A stretch of 64,000 nucleotides of DNA from a virus (IMGVR_UViG_3300027708_000025:64001-128000); one strand, 5' to 3'. Positions 32,032 to 43,766 are shown, counted from the first letter of the stretch. The notes: generated by a model from the sequence alone, not told the origin. Numbers and translations: made by a program.

Positions 32032-33219
32032 TTAGAAAGGAACTTCATCCTTATTTGATTCAGACTTCACTTCCGCAGTTGGATCAATACCAGCATCAAT
32101 TTTGCTGTACAAGTCAAGAAATGCAGTCTTTGTTTCGCCATCAAAACGATTGATACAATATTTGATTGCATCCATTTTATCATTGAAGATAGTGTATGCC
32201 TCGGCAATGTGAGACAAACGGCGAGTGGAAATCAATTCATCAATTGCACCTTCTTCAAATGTCTTACGAATGATATCAGCCCACTTCACAAGATTTTCTG
32301 CGAATGCTTTATCGTTGATACCAAGACTGTCAAACAGTTTAGTCAAAATCTTAGTTTCAACTTTAGTGTCAGGATATTCCTGTTCAACTGTAATTGGGAA
32401 ACGCTCAAGGAACGCATCATCAAGAATTGTTGCCGCCATGTAGCGACCAGTCTCATCACCTTTACCTTTGGTGTTTGCAGTAGCGATAATATTGAAACCT
32501 GTAATTGGTTCAACAAATTCACCAGTTTTCTTAACGAACAAACCTTTGCCTTCAAGTACACCTTGCAAGCACATTAGTTTATTTGAACCACGATCAATTT
32601 CATCAAGAATCAAAACGGCACCAGACTTCATTGCTTGAACAACTGGACCATCAAACCACTTTGTCTCTCCGTCAATCAAACGGAAGCCACCAATCAAATC
32701 ATCTTCATCAGTCTCAGGTGAAATATTTACACGGAGACATTCAACTTTCAATTGGGCACATGCTTGTTCAACCATGAAAGTCTTGCCGTTGCCAGAGAGA
32801 CCAGAAACGAATACTGGATAAAATTTCTTTGATGCAACAATACGTTTCATGTTGTCAAAGAATCCAAAAGGAACATATAATGAATTCACTTTGGGAATAA
32901 TTGCGCCTTCTTGCATACGTGCAACGGAAGACATTTTTGCTACCGCTTTTGCAACAGGAGCCATAATGGGTTCAGAGATTGGCATGGAAGAAACTGGATT
33001 GGATTTGACTAGTGCAAGACCAGCCATGTTAACATTAAATTCTTGGAGAGGCAATTGATACTTGCCACGTCCAACTCGGTACTGATCGGCTTCAAGCCAG
33101 AACTGGCGTTTGGTGCCAGTTTCTTCAGAAAGTGTTACCAATTGCTGACGGGTTACAACTTCACCAAAACGTTTTGCGGCTTCGGTAACAAATGCAACTT
33201 TTTCACTTTGCGTAATCAT
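32032..33219 (-). CDS. MoxR/CobS-like AAA+ ATPase
   Basis: GLSGNGKT, ETDEDDLIGG, LDEID, TANTKG, LERF. Confidence 0.9.
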   Translation of the reverse strand: MITQSEKVAFVTEAAKRFGEVVTRQQLVTLSEETGTKRQFWLEADQYRVGRGKYQLPLQEFNVNMAGLALVKSNPVSSMPISEPIMAPVAKAVAKMSSVARMQEGAIIPKVNSLYVPFGFFDNMKRIVASKKFYPVFVSGLSGNGKTFMVEQACAQLKVECLRVNISPETDEDDLIGGFRLIDGETKWFDGPVVQAMKSGAVLILDEIDRGSNKLMCLQGVLEGKGLFVKKTGEFVEPITGFNIIATANTKGKGDETGRYMAATILDDAFLERFPITVEQEYPDTKVETKILTKLFDSLGINDKAFAENLVKWADIIRKTFEEGAIDELISTRRLSHIAEAYTIFNDKMDAIKYCINRFDGETKTAFLDLYSKIDAGIDPTAEVKSESNKDEVPF

Positions 33220-33262
33220 AATATAATTTGCCTTTCAGTTAAAAATCAATTTCAATACTAGT

Positions 33263-33322
33263 AGTATAACAGAATATTTATGGCAAGTCAAGGGTTACTT
33301 TGACTGTTGTTTTTATACAACA
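33263..33322 (-). promoter_or_regulatory. sigma70-type promoter with upstream 18-bp palindrome
   Basis: TTGACT-17-TATACT; TGTTGTTTTTATACAACA at 33305-33322. Confidence 0.75.
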
Positions 33323-35515
33323 TCAAGCAATTTCCTTGATTACCTTAGAGAGAAGAACACGATTAGTCAAACGGTTTTGGTTCATCTTTAAGAATGCACC
33401 TTTCAACTTACGTGCAGAAACATCTTTGGTATCACCAAGAATATCATCTAACGAATCATCATCGGTAGTCAAATCATTACCACCAGGGATTAAGAAGTAC
33501 TCAGAGTATCCATATCCGTTGACAGAGAAAAACTTTTCGTTACGGAATTGCTTGTATCCATCATCCGTCATTATCATGTTGAAACGTGACATTGCATTTT
33601 GAAAATAACGTTTGCTTTTTGGCAGGATGTAGAATCCAATCAAATTGCAACCAGTACGATCTTTTAGAATTTGCAATAACGTTGGCGTCACACCTTTGTC
33701 ACTCACACGATAAGTTTTTGCAGAATCTTTATCTTCAACATAAGATACTGAACGGAAGTCAGAAGGTCCGATTCTAGTACCACGGCAATCGGCGGATGAA
33801 GTCCACAATGTAGTACTGTCTTCTCCGTCTGTCAAAAAGATAACATTCACAATTTCAGAGCGAGTACGTTTACGGAAATCATTCACAACATTAGATGCTA
33901 CTTGAATTGTCGCATTCAACGGAGTGCCACCAAGACCCATATCATTACGGATATAATTGGACTTGTAATTTCTGCGGTGCTGTACATAAGGTTGATATGC
34001 CTCAGCCACTTGCAACAAATCATTTGCAAATTTACGATATGTTTGGTTTTTCATACTGCTGGACAAAATGTTCAACAAAGAAAAATAGTCAATGTCTAAT
34101 TGATTTTCTTCAATATCTACAGGAGAATCAACTGGCATATCTTTTAGTTTCTTTGGATACTGAGTACTGAAAGCATAAACATCAAACGGAATATTCACTT
34201 TGCGGCAGAACGTTGACATTGTAATTAACTGTTCAATCGTACCAGACATATTGTCAGCCATTGAACCAGACCAATCAATGAACATTACAATACCATGATT
34301 CTTACCATCAGCAACGGCACCAATCTTACGGAAGATATCGTCATTGAATTTGTAAGTATGCAATTTGTTAGTGTCAAGTGTACCAGTATCGGAGACTGTT
34401 ACACGGCGCAACTCAGCCGCTTTCTTTTTCATTTCAAATTCTTTTATAAGATATGCAATAGCATTCTTATTCTTGGATTCAAATTTAGTCAATAGAGTAG
34501 CATCATAACGCTCATGCACTTCCAACTCAGGATCATCGTAAAAGTTATCTTCAAAGAACTTCAATTCTTTAAAAGGAACAATATAATTTTTCAAATCAAT
34601 TTTCTTTTGACTTGCAATCTTGCCAACATAAATTTCTTTTGTTTCTGCAAGACCTTTCAATGCTTGTTGAAATTTTTCATCTGTTACAGATTTAACTTCA
34701 TCACCATACACCTTTAACTCATTAGGCATAGTATTTTCAAACGTGGGTTCGTTAGAATACCCATTGTCAAAGCGGTCTTCGGATTCATAATCGTCATCAT
34801 CTTCACCGTCATCGGAGCCAGAACTGTTTGGATTTTTGTCTTCATAGTCTTCGGTATCATCACCAAAGCCATCTTCAGTATCAAACTCTTCATCATCAAA
34901 TTCGCCATTTTCTTTGCGTTTTTGAAATTCTTCTTTAGCCTCTTGACGTTTTTGTTCTAACTCTGCTTTGCAAAATTCATACAAACGTTCGGTGATATCT
35001 TTCACTTGCTCAAACGAATCTGCCGTTTCAACTTCTTTAACATACAGCATTTCTTCAGCATTGAATTTAATGCCTGCAATAGCACCAAGTTTAAAATGTA
35101 AATTGATTCTATCAATCAACATCATTGCGTTTACATCTTGACCTTTGATGCCAAAGAAGTCACGTTCAGTAAATTGACGATAAGCAATAGCCATTGGTTT
35201 ACGCAAACCTGGATATCTGTCTTTCATTCTACGTTCAATACGTGCATCTTCAATCACATTCAAGAATGTAGAAAATGCAGAACCACCAGCCTTAGCGGCA
35301 TCAACATATGATTGTGGTGTGTCTAATGCGTGACCCACTTCATGCCCGACCAAAAGGTCTGTCATTTCAGGTGTGGTGTCGTTCATAATGGGAAGAGTAA
35401 GACGGCGATTGACGATATCAAATGATGCAGTTTGCACCTTGCGATATTCTACCGAAATATTTTCTGTAGCAAGTAACTTTGCTAGAGTGGATTTTGAAAG
35501 TTGTGTATTAAGCAT
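33323..35515 (-). CDS. Metallopeptidase-vWA (CobT-like) partner of the AAA ATPase
   Basis: HEVGH...NVIEDARIE; acidic linker; MIDAS DWSGS...GGTPL...LTDGE. Confidence 0.85.
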   Translation of the reverse strand: MLNTQLSKSTLAKLLATENISVEYRKVQTASFDIVNRRLTLPIMNDTTPEMTDLLVGHEVGHALDTPQSYVDAAKAGGSAFSTFLNVIEDARIERRMKDRYPGLRKPMAIAYRQFTERDFFGIKGQDVNAMMLIDRINLHFKLGAIAGIKFNAEEMLYVKEVETADSFEQVKDITERLYEFCKAELEQKRQEAKEEFQKRKENGEFDDEEFDTEDGFGDDTEDYEDKNPNSSGSDDGEDDDDYESEDRFDNGYSNEPTFENTMPNELKVYGDEVKSVTDEKFQQALKGLAETKEIYVGKIASQKKIDLKNYIVPFKELKFFEDNFYDDPELEVHERYDATLLTKFESKNKNAIAYLIKEFEMKKKAAELRRVTVSDTGTLDTNKLHTYKFNDDIFRKIGAVADGKNHGIVMFIDWSGSMADNMSGTIEQLITMSTFCRKVNIPFDVYAFSTQYPKKLKDMPVDSPVDIEENQLDIDYFSLLNILSSSMKNQTYRKFANDLLQVAEAYQPYVQHRRNYKSNYIRNDMGLGGTPLNATIQVASNVVNDFRKRTRSEIVNVIFLTDGEDSTTLWTSSADCRGTRIGPSDFRSVSYVEDKDSAKTYRVSDKGVTPTLLQILKDRTGCNLIGFYILPKSKRYFQNAMSRFNMIMTDDGYKQFRNEKFFSVNGYGYSEYFLIPGGNDLTTDDDSLDDILGDTKDVSARKLKGAFLKMNQNRLTNRVLLSKVIKEIA

Positions 35516-36306: not shown

Positions 36307-37881
36307 TTACGGCTTGTAAAAAACAAAAATCGGTTCATACTTCAACCACATCCCGTTCACCTTGCAAAAATTCTTTGCTTTCGGCAAACCAGTGTCAGGA
36401 TCAATACGATTGCCACCTGGCATTTGTGCTAGTGCCATTTTGACTACACCTTTGAATTGCATACCGAGTGATTCCAAAATGTCTTTGCTATCTTTTTCAA
36501 GTGGCAACATGTCAGCACCAAATTTAGCGTCAGCAATATTCCAAAGTAAGTATCTGTCATTACGCAAATACTCAACAGCAGTTTCTAACGTTGGTCGCAA
36601 GAAACCTTCACGCCATGCATCATAGCCAGTAAACTTTTTATACGATTGCGTTGGGTCTTCGCTATACGCTTCCTTAGCAAAGTAAGGAGGGCTAGTGAAC
36701 ACCATGTCTAATTCGCCCTTGTACTTTTGGAACGAACTATCATCTCGGACAACTTCAGAACCAAGTTGAAAAATTTCATAAGTATTGGACTGTTCGAACA
36801 AAACTCCTTCGTTCTTTGCGGAGTTATAGAACTCAGCCAAATCGGCATATTTAGTACTAGGAGTGACGCCATCCCCACCAATAGTGTGATCGGTATTAGG
36901 ATCAGTACCCACATAGTGTAAAGGAATAGAAGTGCGAGAAGCCATAGCACCCAAGATACGCCCACCCCAACCAGAAGAGGGATCGTAAACAACAATTCTA
37001 TCTTGGTTCTTAACGTGTCTAGTAAATTTTTCATAAAGAAGTTTTGCAGTCAATGGTGGAAAGTTAACAGCATATTGGCACCACGATACTCGGAATGCTT
37101 TCAAGCCGACAGGAAAAATCTTTTGTCCATACTTGTACATACGCAGACGATACTTCTTTTGGTCATGTGACTTTATGTTCATTGTAGACTTAGTTGGAAT
37201 TGTCTCTAGAATATCTTGCGTCACTTCAAGATACTTTACGCCTTTGAGTTGTTCATTGTAACCACTATACTCTTCGTCATCATCACGACTCTCTACCCAA
37301 TAGTCATAACCATATTGACGAATGTTATTGTCTTCAAACCAACGAACAAAGTCATTGCCATTCTTAAATTTTACATTATAAGAACCAACAGAAATAATCT
37401 CATTGACTTTAACTGTATTTGAATATGCATAGAATGAATCACGCTTGAAGTGTCGTTTGGAATACTTCAATGTCTTCTCAAGTAATTCATCTTTTAGAAA
37501 GTGGTCATAGATTGAAAGCCCATCGTCATTCTTAGAGTAGTTAATGCGTGTTTTCATCATGGTTGGGAACCATTGATTAGCCGCATTGCCGACTACGCTA
37601 GTATTTCTGATTACATCTTTTTCACCAGTCAATTCATCAACATGTTCAAATTCATGCACAGAGAATCCATACATCTCTTTGAATTGTTTTTTGATCGCAC
37701 CTTCATCCCAACCAACTCTAGGGGGTTGACCCATAGTGTCCCATGAGTGTACAACTGCTTTACGCAAATCAATGAACCATTGACGAAATTCGTCTTCAGT
37801 CATCCATTGCACTTCTTCAAATGTCTTGTTTGTTTCGTGGTTCAATAACCAATCGTTACGTTCATAAAAATGTTTTGTCAT
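36307..37881 (-). CDS. SAM-dependent amino-methyltransferase (N4-C/N6-A DNA MTase-like) with long N-terminal extension
   Basis: YDPSSGWGGR (motif I), FTSPPY (motif IV); start MTKHFYE overlaps the deaminase stop. Confidence 0.8.
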   Translation of the reverse strand: MTKHFYERNDWLLNHETNKTFEEVQWMTEDEFRQWFIDLRKAVVHSWDTMGQPPRVGWDEGAIKKQFKEMYGFSVHEFEHVDELTGEKDVIRNTSVVGNAANQWFPTMMKTRINYSKNDDGLSIYDHFLKDELLEKTLKYSKRHFKRDSFYAYSNTVKVNEIISVGSYNVKFKNGNDFVRWFEDNNIRQYGYDYWVESRDDDEEYSGYNEQLKGVKYLEVTQDILETIPTKSTMNIKSHDQKKYRLRMYKYGQKIFPVGLKAFRVSWCQYAVNFPPLTAKLLYEKFTRHVKNQDRIVVYDPSSGWGGRILGAMASRTSIPLHYVGTDPNTDHTIGGDGVTPSTKYADLAEFYNSAKNEGVLFEQSNTYEIFQLGSEVVRDDSSFQKYKGELDMVFTSPPYFAKEAYSEDPTQSYKKFTGYDAWREGFLRPTLETAVEYLRNDRYLLWNIADAKFGADMLPLEKDSKDILESLGMQFKGVVKMALAQMPGGNRIDPDTGLPKAKNFCKVNGMWLKYEPIFVFYKP

Positions 37882-38342
37882 ATTATTTGTTTTACTGTTA
37901 TTCCGCATTTATTTAGGAAACTGATTCCTGTGTCATCACGATAATCTTCACCATAGAAGACTTCTTTAATTCCGCTTTGAAATATCATTTTAGCACAGTC
38001 CATGCATGGGGCGCAAGTGATAAACATACTTGCACCATCACCACTCTCGGTAGACTTAGCAAGTTTTGCGATTGCGTTAGACTCTGCATGGAGAACTTCG
38101 GATTTTGTTTTGAGTTCTGTTTTTTTTGTCAAAGAAAAAACACCAGGAGAAATTTCTTCTTGGGTAATAAACATGTCCTCACAATTATTATCCCATCCGC
38201 TTGGCATACCATTGTAGCCGATTGAAATGATCCTGTCATCTTTTACAATGACAGCACCAACATGTTTTCTTTTTGCGCTACTCAATTCGGCAAAGACTTT
38301 TGCAGTCTTCATGTATGCGCCTAGATATTTTTCTTTAATCAT
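37878..38342 (-). CDS. dCMP deaminase
   Basis: GYNG, HAESNA, PCMDC. Confidence 0.93.
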   Translation of the reverse strand: MIKEKYLGAYMKTAKVFAELSSAKRKHVGAVIVKDDRIISIGYNGMPSGWDNNCEDMFITQEEISPGVFSLTKKTELKTKSEVLHAESNAIAKLAKSTESGDGASMFITCAPCMDCAKMIFQSGIKEVFYGEDYRDDTGISFLNKCGITVKQII

Positions 38343-38589
38343 TGTCTTCGTATTTTTCAGTTTGTTCAAAACGTCTTTCTTGAATTGTTTTTTCTTTCCA
38401 GACTTTTCTAGGATTTGCACACATCACACAATTTGGATTTCCGCAATCTAGTACATGATGTTTAGCTAATTGATGAGGAGACTCAACTGATATATTATAT
38501 GCTTTAGCAATTTTTAATTGTTTTCGTATTGCATTTTCGTCTTTAAGGATTCGTTTAGATTTTTTGAATTTATCTTCTTCGTTACTCAT
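38335..38589 (-). CDS. Small basic Cys/His-rich hypothetical protein
   Basis: KHHVLDCGNPNCVMCANPRK. Confidence 0.7.
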   Translation of the reverse strand: MSNEEDKFKKSKRILKDENAIRKQLKIAKAYNISVESPHQLAKHHVLDCGNPNCVMCANPRKVWKEKTIQERRFEQTEKYEDND

Positions 38590-38611
38590 GTTCGTTTCCT
38601 TTGAATATTTG

Positions 38612-39376
38612 TTACGCTACATTCCAGATTAGTGCGCCTGGTTTCCCACTACTCACTACGAACTGCCAAAGTTTAGCATCGTAGTACTTCTCAGATGGAT
38701 ATGGAGGTGCTTGATCCTCTTCTATTGCTTGGTCATACTTATATGGTGAACGCATAGTAATAGCACGACCTTTTTCATAGTCACTCATCTTATGTCCAAT
38801 CTCTACTGCATATGCAGGCACATCAGGAAATGCTAATTGCAATCCACGATTCAATGTTCCACTTGATGCAACAGTCCAAATCTCTGTTGGTTTAATTTTC
38901 AAATCTGTTGCGACTTTAACAATTGATGCAAGCACAGACGGATGTTCTAATCCTAAAGGCAAGCATTGTCTGCGTTTTGTATCTTCTTCTTGATATCGTC
39001 TTGCTCTTGCTTTTGTCACAGTAAGCATACCATTGTCAACCCAATGAATAGTGCCGCCAAGGTCCAACACTCTTTGTTGATGCCATGTAGGCTCTTTGCG
39101 TTTAGCCATGAAGAACGTTGCTTTTTTTCCATACAGATTGCACACATATGTTAAAGATATAGGACCCCAACCAACTTTGTTTGCACCACCAAAGACCCAT
39201 TCATCACATTGAGTAGTTTTCACAAGATGGTCAATGAATCTACTTTTGCTTCCATACTCTAACAAGTCATCACGCACAACATGAAAGCCATGGTGCATTT
39301 CAACTATTGGTGCAGGGTTTGGGTCTTTCCATCCTTGTATTATATCATAAGATTCTTCAGGATACAAGCGACTCAT
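38612..39376 (-). CDS. PLP-dependent enzyme-like protein (fold type II; ACC deaminase/D-Cys desulfhydrase-like)
   Basis: VVRDDLL..GSKSR Schiff-base Lys motif; VASSGT loop; YDAK; C-terminal IWNVA. Confidence 0.7.
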   Translation of the reverse strand: MSRLYPEESYDIIQGWKDPNPAPIVEMHHGFHVVRDDLLEYGSKSRFIDHLVKTTQCDEWVFGGANKVGWGPISLTYVCNLYGKKATFFMAKRKEPTWHQQRVLDLGGTIHWVDNGMLTVTKARARRYQEEDTKRRQCLPLGLEHPSVLASIVKVATDLKIKPTEIWTVASSGTLNRGLQLAFPDVPAYAVEIGHKMSDYEKGRAITMRSPYKYDQAIEEDQAPPYPSEKYYDAKLWQFVVSSGKPGALIWNVA

Positions 39377-40469
39377 ACAGGTCTCCTTCCGAGATTGCAT
39401 CTATGACTAAGTGAATTCTATTTTCAGTTCCATTGTTGATAGCTTGATGTGGCTTACGTGTATCTAGAAACCACAAGTCTCCAACATCCATATGTACCTT
39501 TTGTGGATTGCCTTTTGGATCCCACACAGTAAAAATCATGTTTGGATTAGTAATGATTGGTATGTGTAGTCTTGCAAGTTTGCCTTTAGAACCACCAGAG
39601 TCTTTATCTACTTGATCGGTATGTCGTTCAAGTTCTCCACCGCCAGGTTTCAATTGCATGAAACGAACACGATGCACTTGTTTATATTTACTCAACAACT
39701 CACGCACTTCAGGAAACATATCATAGAGTGGTGTGTCTTGCAATTCAAATTTTATGTCTTTGTTTTTTTCTTTCCAGTCATCACTCATCTCTGAAGGCTT
39801 TGTAATGAAGTCTGATTCTGGACGATAGCCACGTAGTGACAATGCAGACCATGCTTTATCTTTGTTGTAGTTACTATAATGATTTGTGAATGCTGGTAAC
39901 GTTGCTAACTTAGCAGAAACAGATTCAATAAATTCTGATGTGATTGCACCAATCTTTTTGATGCTTAGATATTCTGTTGATTCAACTTTAGGAAATGAAC
40001 GTGGAATAGGACTGTTACTCTTAAAGTAAATTGCATGTACTTCTCCGTATGTTGTAATCTTAGGACCAACATAACAGAAACCCAACTCTTCAGCTAAGTC
40101 ACAATGTGCTTTGTTTTCTGCCCATACAGTTAACCAAAAATTGTTTCCTGACAATAAAGAAATTTGATGCTTAATCGTATTAATATTGCCTGAAAGTTTT
40201 CCGATTGAAACATCACCTTTTACTTTTGTTGCAATAACTGTGTCTCCATGCATTGTAATATCTGATGCAACTTTACTATTCGTAACTTCAAACATTGAAG
40301 GTTCAAGACCAAATTCACTAAAAATAAGATTACCTTTTTTCAAAGACTCTGCAATGTTGTTCTTCTTATACTTTGCGAAAGGAGATAATGTATATGCATT
40401 GTAGTCTGCATACTGTGCCTCAAGCCCTTTGAGATAATCTATGTCATATCCATGTTGCCAAGGTTTCAT
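39357..40469 (-). CDS. Two-domain protein: degenerate GNAT-like N-terminus + AspH-type 2OG-Fe(II) oxygenase
   Basis: LTVWAEN...AEELGF (GNAT-like); HTD...RLHIPIITN...DTRKPHQAINNG...RIHLVID. Confidence 0.75.
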   Translation of the reverse strand: MKPWQHGYDIDYLKGLEAQYADYNAYTLSPFAKYKKNNIAESLKKGNLIFSEFGLEPSMFEVTNSKVASDITMHGDTVIATKVKGDVSIGKLSGNINTIKHQISLLSGNNFWLTVWAENKAHCDLAEELGFCYVGPKITTYGEVHAIYFKSNSPIPRSFPKVESTEYLSIKKIGAITSEFIESVSAKLATLPAFTNHYSNYNKDKAWSALSLRGYRPESDFITKPSEMSDDWKEKNKDIKFELQDTPLYDMFPEVRELLSKYKQVHRVRFMQLKPGGGELERHTDQVDKDSGGSKGKLARLHIPIITNPNMIFTVWDPKGNPQKVHMDVGDLWFLDTRKPHQAINNGTENRIHLVIDAISEGDLYESLVS

Positions 40470-40972
40470 TTTTTTACCTTACGTTTTAAAATCATGCGTT
40501 TGCGTATAGCACGTTGTGTTTCAAATGATGATGCCTTTTGAGTATATACTTTTCCAAGCATATGGTCAAATTCGTGCAATGCAATTCGTGCAGTCATGCC
40601 AATAAACTTTTCAGTTCTTGTTTCACCTGTCTCATCTTGAAAACGAATACGTATTGAGTCTGGACGTTTAACGTTTAGATACAATAGAGGAAAACTTAAA
40701 CATCCTTCTTTCATTGTCAGTTCTTTATCTGATACATCAACTATTTTTGGATTAAATACTGCATATGGTTTCTCACTAGTTCTCATAACAAAAACACGAT
40801 ATGGTTGCCCAACTTGATTAGCTGACAATCCAAGTCCATCATTCTTAATCATCTTATCATGCAATGCTTGTGCAAACTCTTTTGGATCAAATGGTGGGTT
40901 ATTAAAATCAAACTCTTTACATTCTTGCAAAAGAACGGGTGATGTTTCCGAAACTAAATTCAATTCAATCAT
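40466..40972 (-). CDS. def: Peptide deformylase
   Basis: GLSANQVG, EGCLS, HEFDH. Confidence 0.95.
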   Translation of the reverse strand: MIELNLVSETSPVLLQECKEFDFNNPPFDPKEFAQALHDKMIKNDGLGLSANQVGQPYRVFVMRTSEKPYAVFNPKIVDVSDKELTMKEGCLSFPLLYLNVKRPDSIRIRFQDETGETRTEKFIGMTARIALHEFDHMLGKVYTQKASSFETQRAIRKRMILKRKVKK

Positions 40973-42681
40973 TTTGTTATCCTTGAGAAATTATTTACTT
41001 TTTCAAATCTAATCACGTTGGCAAACTTGTCTTGCAGAATATCACCTTTGTGTGATATGACAAACAGGTTTGATCCTTCAAGCATGTTTAGAATTTTCAT
41101 CAAATCTTCTGTACCATTTGTATCTAATGATGAATCAAAGATTTCGTCAAGTATCAATATGTTTGTACTTGCTGAATTCTTCAACTTGGCAACAGCACGC
41201 CAAGTCAACATCAATGCCATATCAATACGTTGCTTTTCACCTTCGCTGAATGATGCATATGTGAAATCATCACGATGGCGAGACTTGATTGTTTCTTTGA
41301 ATGACTCATCTAAATTAAAGTTCACAAAGAAATCTAATGATGCAAGATACTTGTTAACTAACTTGTTGATGACTGGTATGTATTGACGAATAATTTTCGT
41401 TTTGATACCGGTATCTTTTAATAAGTTCGTTGCAATCTCATAATACAAACGTTCTTCAGAAATAACTTTAATCTCAGATTCCAATTCAGCAAGTTCTTGA
41501 TTCAATGTTTCAAGTTTTGTTTGTTCAGTTTGCAGGTCATCTTTGACTAACGACAATCGTTCAATTTCTTTTTCAAGACTTTCAATGTATCTACGATTGG
41601 CTTTAATCTCGCTCTGTTCAAATGTCAATTGTGAATTCAACGTTTGAATTTGTCCTACAATCTTTTCAATCTCATCACATCTAACATTAAGTGTATCAAT
41701 CTCTTCATCAACTTTTTTCAATGCGATATCAACTTCTTCAAGTTTTTTAGATCGCTCTTCAATGATGTGTGATTTGTATTCATCACCGATTGTCTGCTTA
41801 CATGTTGGGCAATCATTGTTGTCGTGATAGAATGAAATGTCAGTATTAACTTTCTTAAGTGTTTTACCTAGATTGAGTTTGATGCCTGAGAATTTTGTTA
41901 TCTTTCCATCAACTTTATCTTTGTCTGAAATCTGTGTACACAAATCAGACAAACTTTGACGTAACGTTGTACAGTTAGTTTCACTCTCTATAACTAAATG
42001 TTGAGTGTTAGCAATGTCTTGTTGCTTAGATGAAAGTTGTGCGGCATTACTTTTGTTTAACGAATCAATAAATTGAATTTGATATTGTATCTTTTCACTC
42101 TTCAAATCAACTGCGTATTTTGTTTGAGAATGTTTTTCTTTCAACAACAAAAACTTATCTTTAAGTGCGCTATTCATGCGAGAGAAGATTTGAATGTCTA
42201 ACAAGTCTTCAATGATAGAACGTCTATCGCTTGCAGACAATTGCATGAATGGAGTAAATGATGCTGAACCCAATAGAACGATTTGAGTAAATGATTTATA
42301 GTTGAGTTTGAGAATGAATTTCTCTAGATGTTCCTGATAGTCTTTGACTGCGGCATCTTGATTGACTAGATGCCCATTACAATAAATCTCAAAGATATTT
42401 GGTTTGATACCACGAACAATTTTGTATGTCTTGTTGCCTGTGTCAAATTCAATTTCGGCAACGCAATCTTTTTGATTGATCGTATTAACAAGTTGCCCTT
42501 TGTTAATATTGCGAAATGGTTTACCAAACAGCACAAAGCACAATGCGTCAAGCATCGTAGACTTACCTGAACCATTAGCGCCAACAATCAATGTAGTATT
42601 GTTGCTATCTAAGTTCAGTTCAGTAAAAAAGTTACCTGTAGATAGAAGGTTCTTCCATCTTAAATTACGAAAAATTATCAT
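40969..42681 (-). CDS. 46: gp46 SMC-like recombination ATPase
   Basis: GANGSGKS, CPTC hook, FSEGEK, LDEIFD. Confidence 0.96.
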   Translation of the reverse strand: MIIFRNLRWKNLLSTGNFFTELNLDSNNTTLIVGANGSGKSTMLDALCFVLFGKPFRNINKGQLVNTINQKDCVAEIEFDTGNKTYKIVRGIKPNIFEIYCNGHLVNQDAAVKDYQEHLEKFILKLNYKSFTQIVLLGSASFTPFMQLSASDRRSIIEDLLDIQIFSRMNSALKDKFLLLKEKHSQTKYAVDLKSEKIQYQIQFIDSLNKSNAAQLSSKQQDIANTQHLVIESETNCTTLRQSLSDLCTQISDKDKVDGKITKFSGIKLNLGKTLKKVNTDISFYHDNNDCPTCKQTIGDEYKSHIIEERSKKLEEVDIALKKVDEEIDTLNVRCDEIEKIVGQIQTLNSQLTFEQSEIKANRRYIESLEKEIERLSLVKDDLQTEQTKLETLNQELAELESEIKVISEERLYYEIATNLLKDTGIKTKIIRQYIPVINKLVNKYLASLDFFVNFNLDESFKETIKSRHRDDFTYASFSEGEKQRIDMALMLTWRAVAKLKNSASTNILILDEIFDSSLDTNGTEDLMKILNMLEGSNLFVISHKGDILQDKFANVIRFEKVNNFSRITK

Positions 42682-43766
42682 TCAATGTTTTCTGTGGATA
42701 GTGCCTCAACATAAAGTTCACGCATCAATGTTTTAAGTTTATTTGTATCAGAAATATTTAGGCTTTGTGCATCAATGAATGTAGAAAGAATTGTCATAGT
42801 ATCTTGCGCTTGGTCAATAATATCTTTTTCAGTTGTCTCTTCATTCAATTCTGTAAAGTCTTCAACAATTGTCACATCAACTGGACCAACTTTATAAATT
42901 TCATCTATAAGTTTCTCAAACAAATATGGGTCTTGTTTATTAGCAACAATGACTTTCACATAAGCATTTGCATATTTACTGAAATCAAGTTTCTTTAAGT
43001 CTTCAATTTTTAATTTGTCTGTGCTATTGTTATCGTCATAATTTACTTTGTAAAACATTCTGTGAGGATTCTCTAAGAATGTTGTCTTCATTGTTTCAGT
43101 ATCTAAGATGCCAAATTGTTTTTTATCTTTGTAGTCATTCCAAAACAATTCATATGGTGCACCAACATATGTGATGTTGTCGTGCTGTGATGGCGTATGA
43201 TAGTGTCCGCTGTATACATGATTATAATTGTTTAGAAACTTATAGTCAAGTCCTTCATGGCTATCTACACCACGGAACAATGGAAAACCAGCGAGTTCAA
43301 AGTGTCCCATGCACAATGGAGAAGATGTGTTCTTTACAAACTCAAAAACTTCTGCTTCATTGCTTTTGCAAATCCATGGTATCATATCAATTTTGATTCC
43401 ATCAACTTCAAGTGTTCCTGGTTTCTGCCATAGAACAATATTGTGATAGTCTCTCAACAACAAGTCTGGTGAATTAACTTCTAAACTTTCTTTCCAGAAG
43501 ATATCGTGATTGCCAATCAATGCGTGAACAGTAATGCCTTCTTCAACGCATCTATCAAAAAAGTATCTACGACTTTCCATCAGCGAAAGAAAGTTAATAT
43601 ACTTTCGTCTGTCAAACAAATCACCAAGTTGAATGATTGTTCTTACGCCATGCTCTTCTAATTTTGGAAAGAATGTTTCATCATAAAATTTTTCATAGTA
43701 AGCATGAAACGCTTTGGAGTCATTTCTAACACCAAAGTGCGTATCACCTAATAGACATATTCTCAT
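42678..43766 (-). CDS. 47: gp47 Mre11-like nuclease
   Basis: DTHFG, GDLFD, GNHD, GHYH. Confidence 0.96.
   Translation of the reverse strand: MRICLLGDTHFGVRNDSKAFHAYYEKFYDETFFPKLEEHGVRTIIQLGDLFDRRKYINFLSLMESRRYFFDRCVEEGITVHALIGNHDIFWKESLEVNSPDLLLRDYHNIVLWQKPGTLEVDGIKIDMIPWICKSNEAEVFEFVKNTSSPLCMGHFELAGFPLFRGVDSHEGLDYKFLNNYNHVYSGHYHTPSQHDNITYVGAPYELFWNDYKDKKQFGILDTETMKTTFLENPHRMFYKVNYDDNNSTDKLKIEDLKKLDFSKYANAYVKVIVANKQDPYLFEKLIDEIYKVGPVDVTIVEDFTELNEETTEKDIIDQAQDTMTILSTFIDAQSLNISDTNKLKTLMRELYVEALSTENIE

Follow-up and report, generated by a model that had tools for sequence, protein, structure and literature searches.

To our knowledge, the hypermodifications of phage DNA known so far start from hydroxymethyl-pyrimidines, deazaguanines or the products of C5-methyltransferases. 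In the thymidine hypermodification of the phages M6, ViI and PaMx11, an amino-acid-like group on a DNA base is tailored after replication (PMC8989533): in the study of Lee et al. (NAR 2021, PMC8989533), purified M6 gp52 and ViI gp226 were shown to remove the carboxyl group from amino acids linked to thymidine in DNA, and PaMx11 to tailor such adducts with an acetyltransferase. Besides, CmoX of Synechococcus phage S-B43 is an enzyme with a methyltransferase (MTase) fold that transfers a non-methyl group by using carboxy-S-adenosylmethionine (Cx-SAM; PMC12783734). The present analysis concerns a window of 64,000 nucleotides, i.e., bases 64001-128000 of the 150,107-bp IMG/VR virus record IMGVR_UViG_3300027708_000025, which has direct terminal repeats and is rated complete. 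The phage is an uncultured T4-like myovirus, and the window contains a cluster of five genes. Three of them, encoding MT533 (an SPPY protein of methyltransferase fold), AspH370 (a GNAT fold joined to an AspH-type 2-oxoglutarate (2OG) oxygenase) and PLP262 (a short fold-type-II pyridoxal phosphate (PLP) enzyme), are proposed, with somewhat more confidence than doubt, to constitute one module that modifies bases of the phage's own DNA once it has been replicated. The most likely reading is a pathway of DNA hypermodification in which the methyltransferase-fold enzyme takes the first step; the module probably produces a complex DNA base not described before and bypasses the usual thymidine pathway. 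All coordinates are window positions unless marked otherwise.

The connection between the three enzymes becomes apparent from proteins in which they are fused. The PLP262 family, used as a profile in an exhaustive search, retrieved 1465 representative clusters, with long proteins accounting for 30 of the best 150. According to Pfam and BLASTP, 15 of 28 long representatives feature an MTase domain beside or around the PLP domain. The proteins P0363 (1081 aa) and P0377 (1138 aa) unite an MT533-like catalytic domain, an AspH370 region and a PLP domain in a single chain, with the MTase part of these triple fusions being 31% identical to MT533 (about 1e-26). Moreover, P0180, P0187 and P0371 are AspH-PLP fusions, and P0477 additionally has ParB_N. 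The extended motif IV (T/S)(S/C)PPY..E.YS.D is common to all MTase domains of the fusions and MT533, and motif I GWGGR is shared by MT533 and the triple fusions. The P0363 gene (L180 6520-9765) is located on an 18-kb contig together with glmS- and glmU-like genes, two serine recombinases and PemK; thus, an apparent bacterial mobile element carries the module as well. The 397-aa and 140-aa proteins beside P0363 gave no family match, and a scan of contigs from bacterial genomes returned only contigs of metagenome-assembled genomes resembling phage DNA. Members of the PLP262 family are also fused to YunG (PF24585) and DUF3102 (P0371, P0392, P0401, P0452, P0456, P0467), domains which may be further parts of such modules.

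Likewise, the gene order is retained among related phages. The window proteins were mapped by tblastn onto 166 related IMG/VR loci, which were then de-duplicated. In the slot, the order AspH-PLP-cys84-cd-MT was found at 17 loci and AspH-PLP-MT at 5, so that the trio is preserved in this order in 22 de-duplicated loci; AspH-MT occurred at 11 others, MT alone at 8 and PLP-MT at 1. The co-occurrence of the three enzymes in gene neighborhoods, which the sequence-only reading had put forward as a check, is seen in these 22 loci and in the fusions. In relatives with a gp46 of about 56% identity, the three enzyme genes directly adjoin each other without cys84 and cd, and PLP262 is 72-81% and MT533 about 62% identical; both are thus better conserved than gp46. 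A strict class of loci with the MTase only does not hold, since in two of five rechecked contigs with "MT alone" AspH and GNAT are encoded as separate genes whose order is swapped (L091, G007:C1:10258-11165; L123, G009:C1:14580-15526), AspH coming first and the pair lying directly upstream of the MT533 homologue. The GNAT piece in G009 contains two stop codons. Taken together, fusions and kept synteny show that MT533, AspH370 and PLP262 are functionally coupled as one unit. Of the five-gene unit assumed earlier, this part stands, while cd180 and cys84 are set apart as lineage inserts.

A minimal form of the system is present in cultured phages. In a tblastn search of PLP262 against cultured phages, only the Erythrobacter phages R6L and ZS04 and Microcystis phage Mae-JY30 were found, and the matches sit in genes annotated as DNA methylases. 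R6L and Mae-JY30 are siphophages unrelated to the studied phage. In Erythrobacter phage vB_EliS_R6L, gp1 (L176 4843-7263; 807 aa, annotated "DNA modification methylase") is composed of a ParB-like N-terminus, motif I (DPFAGGSVRG), an inserted PALP domain and motif IV (FSCPPYGDLEVYSDDP). The PALP insert (aa 387-621; 2.5e-10, over the cut-off) thus lies between the MTase motifs I and IV; the ParB-like N-terminus was read from the sequence, with the PADLOC Type II MTase model (aa 12-153) as its sole profile support. In the record, about 1.4 kb separate R6L gp1 from a PAPS-reductase-like gene (gp7). In Mae-JY30, an uninterrupted methyltransferase gene is followed by an adjacent PLP gene. The hhalign comparison of the PLP262 family with the Mae-JY30 PLP protein gave an E-value of 2e-42, and the MT533 family matched the Mae-JY30 methyltransferase with 90% and E 1.4e-6.

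PLP262 (38612-39400, minus strand; start probably Met9 at 39376) is matched by phrog_7093 (4.9e-30). The PALP profile (PF00291) matches 13 of 27 members of its family (best 1.9e-7), and the cut-off is passed by the homologues R6L gp1 (40.6 bits) and Mae-JY30 (46.3 bits). The lysine K52, located within RDD..GSK.R, is invariant in 27 sequences. Searched against Pseudomonas phage M6, the PLP262-family profile matched a single open reading frame (ORF; E 1.6e-10), which is situated after an aGPT-Pplase-like ORF and before a radical-SAM ORF and has its lysine at position 36 counted from MIVNN. Because of these neighbors and K36, this ORF is identified with gp52. In hhalign, the PLP262 family was aligned to M6 gp52 over 217 columns (97.5%, E 8e-12), with K52 falling on the proposed Schiff-base lysine K36. 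Hence, PLP262 belongs with the amino-acid decarboxylases that act on DNA. When the PDB was searched with PLP262 by sequence and by profile, no PLP enzyme was found; in hhalign of the PLP262 family against E. coli DcyD, K52 was placed on the GGNK lysine, but this alignment was not significant (E 0.14). A search of NCBIfam returned nothing useful for MT533, AspH370 or PLP262.

MT533 (36307-37908, minus strand; 533 aa, start probably Met10 at 37881) is most likely the initiator of the proposed modification. Its AlphaFold model (pLDDT, i.e., predicted local distance difference test, 83) features a class I methyltransferase domain of unpermuted order at aa 283-533 (36310-37062). Motif I YDPSSGWGGR (aa 308-317) and motif IV FTSPPYF (aa 404-410, SPPY at 406-409; extended FTSPPYF..E.YSEDP) are both invariant. 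All 28 of 28 MT533-family members match PF01555 (best 5.8e-7), around motif IV only, and the PADLOC Type II MTase model matches MT533 with 1.4e-6. Moreover, the catalytic domain is 29-31% identical to the MTase part of the fusions P0363-P0377. Solved structures matched the catalytic domain with VIA Z values of 14.7 for aTrm11, 14.3 for TrmN, 13.7 for Trm14 and 13.1 for METTL5, and the best-scoring named proteins among predicted viral structures (BFVD) carry the annotation N4-cytosine DNA MTase (E 4e-12). These similarities place MT533 with DNA amino-methyltransferase kin, as far as can be judged from sequence. It is the sole PF01555-like gene of the genome, in which no Dam-type gene was found. 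Ahead of the catalytic domain, the large N-terminal extension noticed earlier was confirmed at about 280 residues; this strongly conserved domain (aa 10-282; 37063-37881) features many invariant positions in the family alignment. It has no Pfam match, and an Atlas feature search yielded scores of 0.84 or below throughout and no useful lead. Structure prediction, suggested for this protein beforehand, therefore clarified the class I MTase domain, while the N-terminal region is outside every structural match of the model. R6L gp1 and P0477 have the architecture of ParB-fused N6/N4 phage DNA methyltransferases (PF01555 + PF02195), with which MT533 shares motif IV and the matches to PF01555 and the PADLOC Type II MTase models. 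In contrast to these, MT533 is devoid of ParB, has the unrecognized 280-aa N-terminal domain and the motif order I then IV, and its subfamily is characterized by the motifs GWGGR and PPY..E.YS.D and by the link to a PLP domain.

AspH370 (39357-40469, minus strand) had been described as an AspH-type 2OG-Fe(II) hydroxylase fused to a GNAT-like domain, and both folds are indeed found in its two-domain AlphaFold model (pLDDT 91). The N-terminal domain (aa 9-155; 40005-40445) adopts a GNAT fold with VIA Z 12.8 to 2pc1 (141 residues aligned, root-mean-square deviation 3.5), and more than 10 further GNATs match it at Z 10-12; no match to the Pfam GNAT profile was obtained in AspH370. The AspH/proline-hydroxylase-type 2OG-Fe(II) domain (aa 163-366; 39372-39983) is supported by PF05118 over aa 175-358 (9.4e-13; 48.7 bits vs. 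a cut-off of 22.6). Its structural relatives include L-proline cis-4-hydroxylase (4p7x, Z 15.4), 7v4p, a beta-hydroxylase of a nucleoside-antibiotic pathway (Z 14.9), and human AspH (Z 14.7). The iron triad H283-x-D285...H341 and the 2OG-binding R351 are invariant in 29 AspH370 homologues. The only sizeable AspH370 match in cultured phages is gene 4 of Mycobacterium phage LilMcDreamy (NC_051582.1 3016-3687), which is annotated as hypothetical and 30% identical over aa 129-354 (E 2e-25).

The two remaining cluster genes lie between those of PLP262 and MT533. The dCMP (deoxycytidine monophosphate) deaminase cd180 (37878-38420, minus strand) is well supported by PF00383 (6.6e-22; 77.8 bits vs. 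a cut-off of 25) and phrog_174 (1e-50), with the zinc motifs LHAESNA and CAPCMDC visible in the translation. In divergent relatives, it does not stand between the PLP and MTase genes and is located elsewhere in L036 and L128. The small Cys/His protein cys84 (38335-38589, minus strand; phrog_4499 of unknown function, 1.9e-8) occurs solely in loci that also have cd180 in the slot. Neither the deaminase nor cys84 is part of any fusion protein. As divergent relatives have neither of them in the slot and the fusions contain neither, both were ruled out as members of the module: cd180 reads as an ordinary gene of nucleotide metabolism that was inserted at this site in the present lineage, and cys84 as a lineage-specific insert outside the core. 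Neither ThyA (PF00303) nor ThyX (PF02511) was matched in the complete 150-kb genome of the phage (G000), and PF00303 had no match in the complete genome of a relative (G004), in the R6L record or in the Mae-JY30 record; M6, used as a control for PF00303, matched at 5.5e-20. Hence, with a dCMP deaminase encoded and neither ThyA nor ThyX, the dUMP (deoxyuridine monophosphate) product must go to the host thymidylate synthase. With no ThyA-family gene in four module-bearing genomes, the supply of 5-hydroxymethyl-pyrimidine is missing.

A tie of the module to DNA is supported by the ParB fusions, the matches to DNA-MTase profiles and the homology of the PLP enzyme to M6 gp52. A PLP enzyme needs a primary amine beside a carboxylate and is here fused to, or inserted into, a SAM-binding (S-adenosylmethionine-binding) domain, and thus the MTase-fold enzyme most likely installs an amino-acid-like group. 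In the proposed sequence of events, the module would be expressed together with the early/middle recombination genes, and MT533 would place the amino-acid-like group on an exocyclic base nitrogen; the S/C-PPY motif would favor N4 of cytosine as target, with N6 of adenine being possible. The simplest source of this group would be the 3-amino-3-carboxypropyl (acp) group of SAM. Decarboxylation of the adduct by PLP262 would then leave a side chain of the aminopropyl type, to which the AspH domain would add a hydroxyl group and whose amine may be acylated by the GNAT domain. As a benefit, the phage DNA would be expected to be shielded from nucleases of the host. A route beginning with the MTase-fold enzyme without hydroxymethyluracil (hmU) enzymes, as the sequence-only reading had suggested, agrees with the fusions, the links to DNA and the missing ThyA-type hydroxymethylase. 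In its most specific form, the proposal makes MT533 the first DNA aminocarboxypropyl transferase, with SAM as amino-acid donor and with PLP, AspH and GNAT domains tailoring the product to a hydroxylated, possibly acylated base; this form is tentative and rather doubtful.

Compared with the thymidine pathway, the proposed route has the post-replicative tailoring of an amino-acid-like group on a DNA base in common, with PLP262 being homologous to the gp52 decarboxylase of M6 and a GNAT fold occurring here where PaMx11 features an acetyltransferase step. In contrast, there is no ThyA-type dUMP hydroxymethylase here, the PLP partner is an amino-methyltransferase-fold protein accompanied by an AspH-type oxygenase, and the target is probably an exocyclic nitrogen instead of C5 of thymidine. 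Moreover, no amino acid:DNA transferase (aGPT-Pplase2) was detected in an insensitive search with M6 gp51 as single query, which matched only itself and missed the known ViI homologue. With the CmoA/CmoX/CmoY system for 5-carboxymethylcytosine, the module would share a SAM-derived non-methyl group on phage DNA as a handle for tailoring. However, CmoX is homologous to C5-cytosine methyltransferases and depends on CmoA, whereas MT533 has the S-PPY amino-methyltransferase motif; the Cmo system has an amide ligase as partner in place of PLP and 2OG enzymes, and no Cx-SAM synthase turned up here, with no search aimed at CmoA being made. The GNAT-like protein Mom of phage Mu, which makes N6-carbamoylmethyl-adenine, is similar by description, as a GNAT-fold protein modifying an exocyclic base nitrogen of phage DNA, but it acts alone and has no methyltransferase, oxygenase or PLP partner. 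Finally, in tRNA the acp transferase TYW2, which has a class I methyltransferase fold, acts before TYW5. The latter is the 2OG hydroxylase of the wybutosine side chain (PMC2938197). The likeness, i.e., aminocarboxypropyl transfer from SAM followed by 2OG-dependent hydroxylation, is one of chemistry; the tRNA system differs in the tRNA substrate, in TYW5 being of the JmjC and not of the AspH type, and in the lack of a PLP step.

Several observations weigh against the proposed DNA module. MT533 itself scores 19.2 bits with PF01555, below the cut-off of 26.7, and PLP262 itself 15.8 bits with PALP, where the cut-off is 35. In the first-look filter of the PLP262-family profile, ViI gp226 gave no match, which leaves M6 gp52 alone to anchor PLP262 to proven enzymes. 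The acyl-CoA loop of the GNAT fold (Q/R-x-x-G-x-G/A) is only partial in AspH370 (K-L-x-G94-N-x, with G94 invariant). Near-complete genomes with AspH-MT have PLP262 nowhere, and the PLP step is thus an optional addition; together with some of the MT-alone loci, this renders the steps separable, and MT533 could simply methylate. We know of no DNA aminocarboxypropyl transferase that has been described, and we infer the chemistry of the module, i.e., methyl or aminocarboxypropyl transfer and the target base, from sequence. The 24 phage tRNA genes would be in line with an RNA target: MT533 might modify an exocyclic amine of tRNA or rRNA of the phage or the host, with the other enzymes tailoring the product as in TYW2/TYW5. 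On tRNA, an acp group is known to be transferred and then hydroxylated by a 2OG enzyme (PMC2938197), and the tRNA N2-methylguanosine methyltransferases aTrm11, TrmN and Trm14 lead the solved-structure matches of MT533 together with METTL5. However, their margin over generic methyltransferases amounts to just 1-2 Z units and the matching sequence profiles are DNA MTase families. As the ParB-domain fusions point to DNA and the characterized relative of the PLP enzyme works on DNA, such an RNA modification module is considered rather improbable.

Within a DNA-directed scheme, the order of events could be reversed, with PLP262, alone or with AspH370, first altering SAM or a free amino acid and MT533 transferring the altered group to DNA. 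Such editing of the cofactor is unlikely, since M6 gp52, the nearest characterized relative, acts on a DNA-bound adduct and not on a cofactor, and since there are near-complete genomes in which MT533 is accompanied by AspH while PLP262 is lacking, so that MT533 is independent of a PLP product. The position of the PLP domain inside the SAM-binding domain of R6L gp1 would nevertheless fit this variant, free amino acids are the normal substrates of fold-type-II PLP enzymes and spermidine synthase, which uses decarboxylated SAM, provides an analogy; a precedent is CmoA, making Cx-SAM for CmoX (PMC12783734). It is quite improbable that MT533 is an ordinary orphan N4-cytosine/N6-adenine DNA methyltransferase directed against restriction, and AspH370 and PLP262 unrelated auxiliary metabolic genes acting on free amino acids. 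Independent double and triple fusions and a PLP insert inside an MTase are hard to explain without a shared substrate, even if SPPY is the classic amino-methyltransferase motif and free-proline hydroxylases are among the closest structures to the AspH domain. Furthermore, MT533 is distributed more widely than the other two families and stands alone in the slot at a few loci, but two of these actually have the split AspH and GNAT genes beside it. Hydroxylation by AspH370 and methylation by MT533 of a virion or host protein, e.g., the collagen-like fiber or a translation factor, has a very remote chance of being correct: AspH and prolyl hydroxylases have protein substrates, glutamine methylation is known from PrmC-type NPPY enzymes and a peptide deformylase gene adjoins the module, yet internal protein residues are not substrates of PLP enzymes, the module genes are without late promoters, and the ParB fusions and the homology to M6 gp52 indicate DNA. 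No gene for a protein substrate was seen to co-vary with the module, and nothing was found in favor of the collagen fiber hydroxylation named earlier as an alternative.

In literature searches, no description of an MTase-AspH-PLP module was found. If the proposed DNA module exists, its amino-methyltransferase-fold route tailored by PLP, 2OG and GNAT enzymes would represent a new entry chemistry and probably yield a new modified base. With MT533 as an aminocarboxypropyl transferase, it would also constitute a new class of DNA hypermodification with a wide distribution among aquatic T4-like phages, some siphophages and bacterial mobile elements. In a word-index search, 2280 homologues were obtained for MT533, and 1068 and 412 for the other two core families; these families are large and exceed the recombination nuclease gp46 in conservation, so that the modification would be a common feature of T4-like phages from freshwater and the sea. 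Restriction resistance and sequencing signals would be affected by it, and new enzymes for DNA labeling would become available. The minimal MTase-PLP pair in the cultured phages vB_EliS_R6L and Mae-JY30 renders the question directly testable.

Regarding the genomic setting, all genes of the region are encoded on the minus strand. The cluster is preceded by gp47 (42678-43766), gp46 (40969-42681) and a peptide deformylase gene (40466-40972; PF01327, 4.9e-37), the last of which directly precedes AspH370. The five ORFs were recovered where the sequence-only reading had located them, i.e., overlapping or abutting directly downstream of 47-46-def, and adjacent cluster genes abut or overlap by 4 to about 45 nt. 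As each cluster protein has hundreds to thousands of conserved homologues, the ORFs are real genes and not chance occurrences. The late-promoter motif TATAAATA was not found between 35 and 45 kb of the window, which fits early/middle expression alongside the recombination genes; the counts of sigma-70-like promoters and terminators were not above chance. The highest identity of the phage gp46, 49%, is to gp46 of Methylophilales phage Melnitz and cyanomyoviruses, and a DNA-level similarity search against cultured phages gave no match. Just downstream of the cluster (32032-35515, minus strand), a CobS-like AAA_5/CbbQ_C ATPase (phrog_249, 7e-113) and a 730-aa partner (phrog_459, 4e-184) are encoded, whose synteny with the module is kept in most related loci. 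The 24 tRNA genes form an array on the minus strand (G000:C1:38234-44367; L184 2235-8367) with three tRNA-Met and no tRNA-Phe. Beside this array and outside the window, a second, short 2OG-oxygenase ORF of 179 aa (G000:C1:38714-39061) shows 35% identity to AspH370 aa 229-358.

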